Positions 6,062-7,018 of a DNA stretch of 64,000 nucleotides are shown in pieces; position 1 is the first letter of the stretch, and the number at the start of each line of letters is the position of its first letter. The notes under the pieces were generated by a model. It was not told where the DNA came from and searched no databases. It saw only the letters and a program-made list of their open reading frames with translations. Location: contig CAWDOD010000003.1 in assembly GCA_963803805.1 (NCBI GenBank), forward strand, positions 192,001 to 256,000, read 5' to 3'. Made by a program: the position numbers and the translations under genes. The stretch comes from an uncultured cyanobacterium. GTDB lineage: Bacteria; Cyanobacteriota; Cyanobacteriia; Cyanobacteriales; CAWCAG01.

Positions 6062-7018
6062 TCAATATCGATTTGGTAAACCTTCGGGACGGAATTGTTG
6101 ACACATATCTGGACATGATCCGTCAGGATTATATGCACCAGATATTCGACCGCTATTATTTGCGATTTGATCTTGCTGGCTTGCTTCAGCTGGATCTCCT
6201 TTAATCTGGTCAAAAATCTCCCTTGAATTGCTTAACCACTCAGCCATCTGTGCGCCATAAGGACCGAGTTGAGCTGCTTCACAATTTGCCTTGCAGTGAA
6301 AATAGGCATCGCCACCAATCCAATTTGCCTCACGCATATCGTTATAGTTTCGCCAAAAAATACTGATAGCTGCTCCTTCCTGGAAAGCTCGTGCAGCTTG
6401 ATCTAAACTTGGTCCCAAAACTGGATTTTGGGGTATGAGTATTTGAGAAAGTATTCGTGATTGATCAGATGAGTTGTTCGTAGATAGTGGGTCTAATTCA
6501 TCTGAAAGTTGGCTATTATTATCAGTAGCTTGTTGGAATTGCGAACCTTCTAATTTTTCCCTATCAGAAACTTCTGCTTTAGCTTGAACTTGTAAAGAAC
6601 TCCTCTGAGCATAATTTCGCAACAAATGCTGAACAGATTCCCCAGCAGCCACCTTAGCTCCCACCGCATCAGCCTCCACCTCATACTTATCCCCCACCTT
6701 ACCCATTTCTCCCGCAAGTTGCACCTTACCAGATTGTTGCTGTACAACATGAGTTCCTTCATGGGCTGATAACTCCACACTAGGAGGCTTTTGAAAAGCA
6801 ATCTTATTCCCCATCGTATAAGCCTGGGCCCCCAACTGCTTACTCGCTGCTGCTGCGGGGCCACCGATATAAGCTTGGACATGGGACAAATCTTGTCCAA
6901 AAGACCTTTGAATTCTATCTAAATGAGGTAATGGTACAGGGGAACCGGTAAAACCTGTAGCAGCAATCTGGGATGGAGAGTGATTAGTTTCTTCTCCTCC
7001 ACATTTGGCACATTTAGC
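6062..7018 (-). CDS. DUF4157 (eCIS core) protein with C-terminal serum amyloid A-like domain; 5' end disrupted
   Basis: Frame open to 7018 ([10 protein letters not shown]...[19 protein letters not shown]); [10 protein letters not shown]; C-terminus [17 protein letters not shown]...DQIANNSGR...[10 protein letters not shown]. Confidence 0.85.
   Translation of the reverse strand, partial: [318 protein letters not shown]

Follow-up and report, generated by a model that had tools for sequence, protein, structure and literature searches.

The stretch of DNA analysed here (the window) comprises 64,000 nucleotides from an uncultured cyanobacterium of the order Cyanobacteriales (GenBank assembly GCA_963803805.1, contig CAWDOD010000003.1, positions 192,001 to 256,000), and its minus strand contains, at 6062–7018, an open reading frame (ORF) that ends in a domain with the fold of serum amyloid A (SAA). 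We propose, with a probability of about 0.68, that this frame and the small gene that follows it are a cassette of a polymorphic-toxin array, in which a prokaryotic SAA (prok-SAA) tip would be an extracytoplasmic toxin directed at lipid head groups and the small gene would encode the corresponding membrane-bound immunity protein, and that this cassette is now in a decayed, probably undeployed orphan state. The SAA tip itself is of an already known kind; what is novel is its rare carrier, an immunity family of very small proteins for which there is no family model, and the documented decay of the array.

The frame consists of 318 codons followed by a TGA stop codon (6062–6064) and encodes a DUF4157 head, a linker and the prok-SAA tip. 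An earlier note, made from the letters of the window, had proposed an SAA-like domain at 6062–6400; the peptide it quoted is the C-terminal third of this frame. The Pfam profile SAA (PF00277) indeed matches residues 177–275 (6065–6361) of the 275-residue ORF that is read from the TTG codon at 6889, which is the numbering used below for all residues of the SAA gene. The match covers positions 13–102 of the 102 positions of the profile, with an E-value of 4.7e-25 and a score of 88.4 bits (the cut-off is 30.8). In a whole-genome scan the score is 91.3 bits, and this is the sole SAA match across the 5.3-Mb genome. The head, which is zincin-like and carries the HExxH sequence HEGTH, is matched at 6728–6937 by PF13699, the family formerly named DUF4157 and now eCIS_core, with 60.7 bits when the whole open frame is used and 41.9 bits with the ORF that starts at TTG (cut-off 22). 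The SAA domain is therefore in the variable C-terminal position of a DUF4157 protein, where a toxin is expected, as had been read from the letters.

The comparison with known structures leads to the same identification. A phmmer search against the chain sequences of the Protein Data Bank (PDB) returns eight matches, every one of them an SAA (E 8.1e-17 for human SAA1, 4ip8_A, and 8.2e-17 for mouse SAA3, 4q5g_A), and the alignment with animal SAA is collinear up to the terminal tyrosine, with one 10-residue bacterial insertion, that of the second cysteine pair. The AlphaFold2 model of the domain, built on an alignment of 80 sequences (A2), consists of four long helices and a short one, with a mean predicted local distance difference test (pLDDT) score of 95.9 and a predicted template-modelling score (pTM) of 0.89. 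When this model is compared to the PDB with Foldseek, the top seven matches are all SAA chains (E 3e-7 to 8e-5), on which it superposes with template-modelling (TM) scores by target of 0.92–0.94 and root mean square deviations of 1.4–1.8 Å (4ip8, 4ip9, 6pxz, 6py0, 4q5g), and the eighth match has an E-value of 1.5. The Pfam scan and the structural superposition, which the earlier note had suggested as checks, thus both confirm that the frame carries a genuine SAA-fold domain, whose resemblance to SAA is far beyond chance.

The identity to mammalian SAA reaches about 38% over the whole domain, and one may ask whether the sequence is derived from an animal, by contamination or by recent transfer. 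The probability of this is negligible. The domain lies inside a 668-kb cyanobacterial contig and continues the reading frame of a bacterial DUF4157 head. A HMMER pass over 1.84 billion cluster representatives collects 913 proteins at E ≤ 0.001 (472 at E ≤ 1e-10), and 116 bacterial genomes, in a scan of one genome per species, encode relatives. The nearest relatives, at 64–65% identity, are found in cyanobacteria of the genus Coleofasciculus, and the GC profile of the locus is unremarkable. The contig, the fusion to the head and the bacterial relatives together rule out contamination by animal DNA.

The family to which the domain belongs has been described. Burroughs, Nicastro and Aravind (eLife 2025, PMC12419801) define the Lipocone superfamily, in which prok-SAA stands beside animal SAA in an SAA-Wnt clade, and their main text, with a reference to Zamocky and Ferianc (2023) on bacterial SAA, presents prok-SAA as having been recruited as the toxin tip of polymorphic toxins. 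The active site that they propose consists of a histidine in helix 2, a glutamate in helix 3, an aspartate in helix 4, a polar residue at the end of helix 3, and a polar residue and a glycine in helix 4; a motif sNxxGR in helix 4 is given for the SAA-Wnt clade. All the proposed pocket positions are kept in the window copy, namely His198, Glu224, Asp227, Asp240, Asn244 and Gly247-Arg248, the last three being part of the motif A243-N-N-S-G-R248. Across 179 homologues pooled from three protein searches, His198 is conserved in all 179, Glu224, Asp240, Asn244 and Gly247 in 178 each, Arg248 in 173 and Asp227 in 162; Asp194 (179 of 179) and Arg223 (176 of 179) are equally well kept. Judged from its sequence, the window domain belongs to the prok-SAA toxin tips already published within the Lipocone superfamily. 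The earlier note held that the domain bears on the ancestral function of the animal protein; its bearing on the origin of animal SAA is not new, since the idea of a descent from bacterial polymorphic-toxin tips was published in 2025 (PMC12419801), and the window therefore provides a further example and no discovery in this respect.

The four cysteines of the domain had been taken as additions of this copy that suggest disulfides. They are present and compatible with disulfides, but they are not specific to the window copy: Cys199 is conserved in 171 of the 179 homologues, Cys203 in 172, Cys259 in 170 and Cys263 in 169, so that in this alignment the four cysteines are a family trait (at least 94%) and no peculiarity of the window. 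In each of the pairs 199/203 and 259/263 the spacing is i, i+4; the first pair is in helix 2 and the second in the short C-terminal helix, which packs between helices 2 and 4 in the published description (PMC12419801). Considering this spacing and this packing, it is reasonable to infer that two disulfides join helix 2 to the C-terminal helix.

Regarding the activity, the Lipocone paper takes TelC, which acts on lipid II, and PTDSS1/2 as analogues and predicts that phosphate-linked lipid head groups are cleaved or exchanged (PMC12419801). Following this analogy, the SAA tip would act outside the cytoplasm of the target bacterium, as TelC does, and would cleave or exchange phosphate-linked lipid head groups, such as those of undecaprenyl-linked cell-wall precursors; catalysis would proceed through the conserved His/Glu/Asp pocket, with the C-terminal helix held to helix 2 by the two putative disulfides. 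This mechanism draws on the analogy made in that paper, the polar pocket and its conservation, the cysteine pairs and the partner protein, which probably faces outwards (see below).

The earlier note had in mind a lipid-binding or membrane-damaging effector, and it may be that the tip is a non-enzymatic domain of that sort, comparable to animal SAA with high-density lipoprotein or retinol. It is true that the closest structures are those of SAAs that bind lipid and retinol, among them a retinol complex of mouse SAA3 (6py0), and that catalysis in the SAA family is a prediction of the Lipocone paper (PMC12419801). We nevertheless consider this unlikely. The His, Glu, Asp, Asn and Arg that are nearly invariant (173–179 of 179) line positions that the Lipocone paper assigns to a pocket common to TelC and PTDSS1/2 (PMC12419801), which is a pattern typical of catalysis and not of bulk lipid binding, and the existence of a dedicated, sequence-specific predicted immunity protein is easier to reconcile with the blocking of an active site than with the blocking of general membrane damage. 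The putative active-site positions kept in the window thus speak for an enzyme that attacks lipid head groups rather than for a protein that would merely bind lipids or damage membranes.

The second gene of the cassette is at 5889–6056 on the minus strand. Its ATG is 5 nt after the stop codon of the SAA gene and it codes for a 55-residue protein that would span the membrane once and is predicted to provide the cognate immunity; it consists of an N-terminal hydrophobic helix and a short tail that contains cysteines. A longer ORF of 75 residues, listed from 6116, was discarded as the partner: it extends into the SAA gene, and the alignment of the family supports the ATG at 6056. The conservation of this arrangement was assessed in the best 80 loci of the one-genome-per-species scan. 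In 65 of them an ORF of at least 40 residues with the motif C[LS]D.[GS]G begins a few nucleotides past the SAA stop, and in one more (L018) the motif is found 28 nt past the stop in a shorter ORF, which brings the total to 66 of 80. As a control, the motif occurs 68 times in the six-frame translation of the loci (1,065,500 residues), and just two of these occurrences are elsewhere; a stricter form of it is found once in 10.6 million residues of translation of the window genome, at the site of the partner.

The alignment of 50 partners (A3) has eight invariant columns, D30, C32, L33, D34, G36, G37, W39 and C46, which spell the motif DxCLDxGGxW(x6)C. In four members a lipobox takes the place of the transmembrane helix, so that the motif comes to lie outside the cytoplasm. 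A different partner is found in 11 of the 80 loci (L009, L010, L019, L048, L049, L054, L058, L067, L068, L074 and L084): it is a lipoprotein or transmembrane protein of about 150–210 residues with the motifs GW(I/V)P..LP and DTNExW. The three remaining loci have neither type (L066, L079, with an insertion sequence (IS) downstream, and L085, whose flank is short). When mapped on a quick toxin-domain tree, the immunity types cluster, with 7 changes compared to a mean of 13.4 after shuffling, and none of 200 shuffles gives a number as low; the alternative partner goes with particular toxin clades. None of the Pfam or NCBIfam models matches more than one of the 50 partners, and a search of an index of 5.8 billion proteins with the window partner returns three matches, one of which is the query itself and none of which has a Pfam domain.

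By its position and its motif, the partner is a dedicated and conserved gene, in agreement with what had been supposed from the letters. The 55-residue protein would neutralise the SAA toxin at the periplasmic face of the membrane of the producer. A bolder idea, which we put forward as conceivable but somewhat doubtful, is that the DxCLDxGGxW(x6)C proteins of about 50 residues are the principal natural inhibitor of SAA-fold toxins, and that toxin and inhibitor form a two-gene unit that moves among unrelated carriers, namely Rhs shells, giant non-Rhs proteins and DUF4157 heads of contractile injection systems (CIS); the inhibitor would so far have escaped family models and gene callers. Should this be true, and should the partner plug the His/Glu/Asp pocket, it could be used as it stands to probe the biochemistry of the SAA fold, animal SAA included.

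The homologues also show in which context such tips are usually found. The SAA domain ends at most 3 residues from the C-terminus in 165 of the 179 proteins, 4–30 residues from it in 12 and further away in 2. A Pfam scan of the 77 proteins of intermediate length (80 proteins of at most 215 residues, the protein of the window and the longest ones being left out) finds SAA in all 77, an Rhs/YD shell in 36, PF13699 in two (P0002 and P0008), MuF in one and PG_binding_1 in one. The open frames of 79 of the species-representative loci (L011, which contains N, was dropped) all match SAA; RHS_repeat is found in 26, RHS in 22, DUF6531 in 8, and eCIS_core in a single one, that of a Coleofasciculus metagenome-assembled genome (L006). 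These two sets of counts support the statement of the earlier note that bacterial SAA is mainly found on Rhs proteins, and they show that a DUF4157 carrier is rare. PF00277 has also been found at the C-terminus of seven PAAR-Rhs proteins in an in-silico paper on enterohaemorrhagic Escherichia coli O157:H7 (PMC7216683). The protein searches returned no stored animal sequences, save possibly one protein with tandem SAA domains (P0161), and there was no match among the plasmids or phages searched; an Enterobacterales SAA locus used as blastn query gave no match in the E. coli genomes searched.

The carrier varies: the tip is on a DUF4157 head in L006, on a non-Rhs protein with a length of 1437 residues or more in another Coleofasciculus locus (L007), and on an FG-GAP/Rhs protein in another Oscillatoriales genome (L066), which suggests that tip and partner move between carriers. 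The L006 locus, which is the nearest relative, has the layout in intact form. A gene for a 710-residue ATPase is divergent from a gene for a 325-residue protein, which has an ATG, a leader of about 110 residues, a DUF4157 head and the SAA tip; downstream are a 52-residue partner, a 494-residue effector with the same leader and head (L006 4889–6373) and two lipoprotein genes. The tip of the second effector is Ntox6 (PF15544, E 1.9e-149), which confirms for this lineage that the DUF4157 head is a carrier of polymorphic toxins.

DUF4157 is the hallmark N-terminal domain of the toxins of extracellular contractile injection systems (eCIS) (Geller et al. 2021, PMC8213781; 2024 Mol Syst Biol, PMC11297309). 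An SAA tip is not mentioned in the main texts of these two papers; it may be listed in their supplements. In intact homologues, exemplified by the 325-residue L006 protein and by P0002 from a metagenome, the N-terminal leader (some 75–110 residues) and the DUF4157 head would mark CIS cargo, and the gene is back-to-back with that of a dedicated AAA+ ATPase. The window genome does encode a CIS: genes for the sheath, three tube proteins and Pvc16_N are on contig C2 (292–298 kb), with a GerE response regulator, and those for gp25 and Baseplate_J are on contig C4 (344–346 kb), while the array that contains the SAA cassette is on contig C3. The CIS genes are thus dispersed, with effector modules at four further sites and nine PF13699 matches in all. 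The gene of an eCIS-associated toxin would be expected in the eCIS operon or at most about ten genes away from it, whereas the window array adjoins only the gene of a truncated AAA ATPase.

Among the window genome and its 40 nearest relatives, only the window genome has an SAA domain; of 401 sampled genomes of the phylum, 49 have one, that is the window's own, 47 in a single family with genomes of about 2 Mb (f53) and one in the order of the window. The segment from about 5467 to 6620, which includes the SAA tip, the partner and a 119-residue ORF, has no DNA match in a genome of the same genus (G001). The 119-residue ORF (5505–5864, minus strand, directly downstream of the partner, no family assigned) may also belong to the imported cassette. 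Most economically, a unit made of a prok-SAA tip and its immunity gene would have been imported and have recombined onto a local DUF4157 head, and this unit would now be left behind, as an orphan, in an array that has decayed. With respect to the small-genome family, we note that the SAA frame was picked up in 10 of 11 of its loci (L091–L101) and in none of these 10 has the full four-cysteine pattern, and that a protein with a DxCLD-type motif is found in one of the 11 loci only (L094), where the motif is in tandem.

The array would consist of polymorphic-toxin cassettes, each with a DUF4157/eCIS_core head, a linker and a variable C-terminal tip, and with a small immunity gene of its own downstream. 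Upstream of the SAA cassette (all the following genes are on the minus strand), a recombination scar at 7196–7378 encodes a 60-residue fragment of a 139-residue lipoprotein-type immunity gene (repeat D2). Next are a 139-residue lipoprotein-like gene (7396–7815), which presumably confers immunity to the toxin of the neighbouring type of cassette, and a 209-residue DUF4157 head and linker with no toxin tip (7805–8434), 5'-truncated with respect to G001. Further upstream are a 136-residue lipoprotein-like gene, also presumed to provide immunity (8424–8834), and an open frame of 341 codons, with neither leader nor start codon, that encodes a DUF4157 head and an unassigned tip (8845–9870). Another 139-residue lipoprotein-like gene (9871–10290) has a DNA sequence 93% identical to 7396–7815. 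Last, 10302–10949 is a headless, frame-shifted remnant of an effector, in two ORFs of 85 residues, with the same type of tip as 8845–9810 and with a linker repeat (D6) in common with 7834–7942. The three DUF4157 heads share repeats of 300 nt with 77–94% identity, and each is followed by a small gene. The unassigned tip of about 200 residues (8845–9810), which is paired with the lipoprotein-like genes of 136–139 residues, matches no Pfam, NCBIfam or PADLOC model; the effector that bears it has a full-length orthologue in G001 (L090 6172–7101). The head frame at 8845–9870 opens right after the TGA of the upstream 139-residue gene; we also observed that this gene and the head are in one reading frame, with a single TGA codon (9871–9873) between them.

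Divergent from the array, on the plus strand, is the gene of an AAA+ ATPase (10946–12322) that has lost about 255 N-terminal codons. When the array proteins are searched with PADLOC and NCBIfam, nothing is found save generic AAA/IetA-like matches for this ATPase, and its assignment to a defence system was rejected because the scores are far below the curated cut-offs.

Several observations indicate that the array has decayed. The SAA frame is closed upstream by a TAA codon (7019–7021), and there is no ATG, GTG or TTG before the TTG at 6889, which corresponds to position 19 of the DUF4157 profile. The gene thus has neither the leader nor the translation start of its own that an eCIS-associated toxin would have. 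Two full-length effectors in G001 have a leader of about 75 residues, which is absent from the window genome, where tblastn gives nothing better than an E-value of 0.27, and the DNA homology of the three window heads to the G001 effector genes begins only at nucleotides 197, 189 and 278 of the genes. The cassettes are therefore 5'-truncated, homologous to full-length genes, and stacked, each with its immunity gene, as orphan cassettes are. The ATPase of the window aligns with the 710-residue protein of L006, and with three full-length paralogues in its own genome, from residue 256 only; upstream of that residue, its frame runs into the reverse complement of an effector linker, in a head-to-head deletion junction. 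Because the junction reads into the linker, a single deletion probably took away the N-terminus of the ATPase, the shared promoter region and the master gene that carried the leader. A promoter-like scan finds no site on the minus strand in 6890–7500, but it finds 6 sites overall where 5.0 ± 2.1 are expected by chance, and the promoter and terminator scan is no better than shuffles. Since none of the three heads has a start codon or a leader, the first effector is reduced to a frame-shifted stump and the ATPase is shortened by its N-terminal third, the SAA cassette is most likely an orphan that is not delivered, contrary to the working effector that the earlier note had envisaged. The intact 55-residue gene may still protect the cell against the SAA toxins of its neighbours, and the immunity gene may be the part of the cassette that is under selection.

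It may be argued, on the contrary, that the gene product is a working effector, made by initiation at the TTG at 6889 or at a non-canonical codon further upstream and either loaded into the CIS with the help of a paralogue of the ATPase or released by lysis. We think that this is improbable, but a number of points speak for it and weigh at the same time against the orphan state that we favour. The frame of 318 codons is open, every conserved SAA position is intact, including the catalytic ones, and the immunity gene is intact and tightly coupled, which is unexpected for an old pseudogene; a 275-residue product starting at the TTG or at a non-canonical codon is possible. The genome has a complete set of CIS marker genes and three ATPase paralogues of nearly full length (on contig C9, at C3:166990–168906 and at C2:209007–210931, the latter two beside PF13699 genes), which might serve in trans. 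The ATPase may even be dispensable, since that of G001 is disrupted while its effectors are full length. Also, the assembly is 97.4% complete, in 11 contigs, and a leader-bearing acceptor gene could lie in unassembled sequence. Other points bear on the function that we propose. The enzymatic mechanism leans on the analogy with TelC and PTDSS1/2, which both belong to other Lipocone families; kinship alone can add to the clustering of immunity types on the toxin tree; the CIS structural genes are on other contigs, away from the array; and cysteine pairs of the disulfide type and an outward-facing immunity protein fit a periplasmic site of action, but fit poorly the usual delivery of eCIS cargo into the cytoplasm.

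What argues against a working effector is, first, that starting at the TTG would remove 18 profile positions of the DUF4157 domain, and that the leader present in the G001 and Coleofasciculus homologues is missing from the whole genome. Second, the three heads are all truncated, and at different points, the effector stump nearby carries a frameshift and the adjoining ATPase has lost its N-terminal part. The lack of a promoter-like site upstream of the frame points in the same direction, within the limits of a scan that is at chance level overall.

With regard to the ATPase of G001 (L090 7328–10223), we note that its coding region is in two frames, as the result of an IS insertion and a frameshift; a 407-residue ORF at its 5' end is a putative IS-encoded TnpB-like protein. 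Elsewhere in the window, an IS4-type DDE transposase gene (3624–4640) lies between a 95-residue ORF (4716–5003) and its 170-residue paralogue (2893–3405), whose DNA sequences are 73% identical over 200 nt; the 95-residue ORF was seemingly cut at the insertion. Unrelated to the array, the region 19135–24195 encodes a 1237-residue hybrid histidine kinase, whose N-terminal domain resembles that of ethylene receptors (ETR1_N, E 3e-44), and then a response-regulator adenylate/guanylate cyclase.

The locus is thus a clean case of an SAA tip on a DUF4157 head of the contractile-injection type, a combination that is rare among the relatives examined and that the main texts searched do not name. The greatest novelty lies in the very small conserved partner, for which there is no family model: a toxin together with its antidote would give a genetic handle on the SAA fold. 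The array is also a worked example of decay, in which the master gene and the N-terminus of the ATPase were probably lost in one deletion that left behind cassettes which look intact but have no leader, and it cautions against taking every open toxin frame as a deployed weapon.

The comparison with known systems puts these features into perspective. Compared to animal SAA (human SAA1, 4ip8/4ip9; mouse SAA3, 4q5g/6pxz), the window domain has the same fold, with the identity and TM scores given above, and the Asp/His, Arg-Glu and Asp..Asn..Gly-Arg positions are common to both. However, the animal proteins are secreted, stand-alone metazoan apolipoproteins of about 104–112 residues, with neither a DUF4157 head nor an immunity partner, and they do not have the four cysteines nor the 10-residue insertion, whereas the window domain is fused to a bacterial head.

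With the prok-SAA Lipocone family, the window domain shares the SAA profile match, the five-helix fold, the His/Glu/Asp residues, the sNxxGR motif (here ANNSGR), and the arrangement of a C-terminal toxin tip with a membrane-anchored immunity gene downstream. The delivery routes described in the main text of PMC12419801 are different, since they are the type IV, VI, VII and IX secretion systems and MuF; the words DUF4157, eCIS and contractile are absent from this main text, and may be covered in the supplements. The paper does describe an N-terminal fusion to a zincin-like metallopeptidase, but with vWD and Ig domains, and the sole immunity protein of its main text has four conserved cysteines and is made of a helix and four strands, unlike the partner in the window, which has about 50 residues and two cysteines. 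The SAA proteins of the Rhs and PAAR-Rhs type (PMC7216683) have the same tip and, in most loci, the same DxCLDxGGxW partner gene, but their carrier is an Rhs/YD shell, probably linked to type VI secretion, instead of a DUF4157 head.

The TelC-TipC pair of Streptococcus intermedius, as described in PMC12419801, resembles the system that we propose in that TelC is a Lipocone toxin, active only outside the cytoplasm, and that its immunity protein is anchored in the membrane and faces outwards; the proposed activity of the lipid-II type is modelled on TelC. TelC differs in that it belongs to another family and clade of Lipocone proteins, is delivered by type VII secretion with an LXG domain, and has an immunity protein of unrelated fold. 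Like the eCIS-associated toxins (PMC8213781, PMC11297309), the window protein has a PF13699 head with HExxH and a variable C-terminal toxin, in a genome that encodes a CIS; an AAA ATPase is next door, and a Coleofasciculus relative has Ntox6 on the same head. Unlike them, the window copy has no N-terminal leader and is not on the contig of the structural genes.

Displaced, 5'-truncated toxin-immunity cassettes occur downstream of rhs and cdiA genes. The window array is like these orphan cassettes in that its 5'-truncated toxin genes keep homology to the full-length gene and are stacked, each with an immunity gene. It is unlike them in that the block retained is the DUF4157 head rather than the Rhs core or the CdiA pretoxin region, and in that the full-length master gene has here probably itself been lost by deletion.

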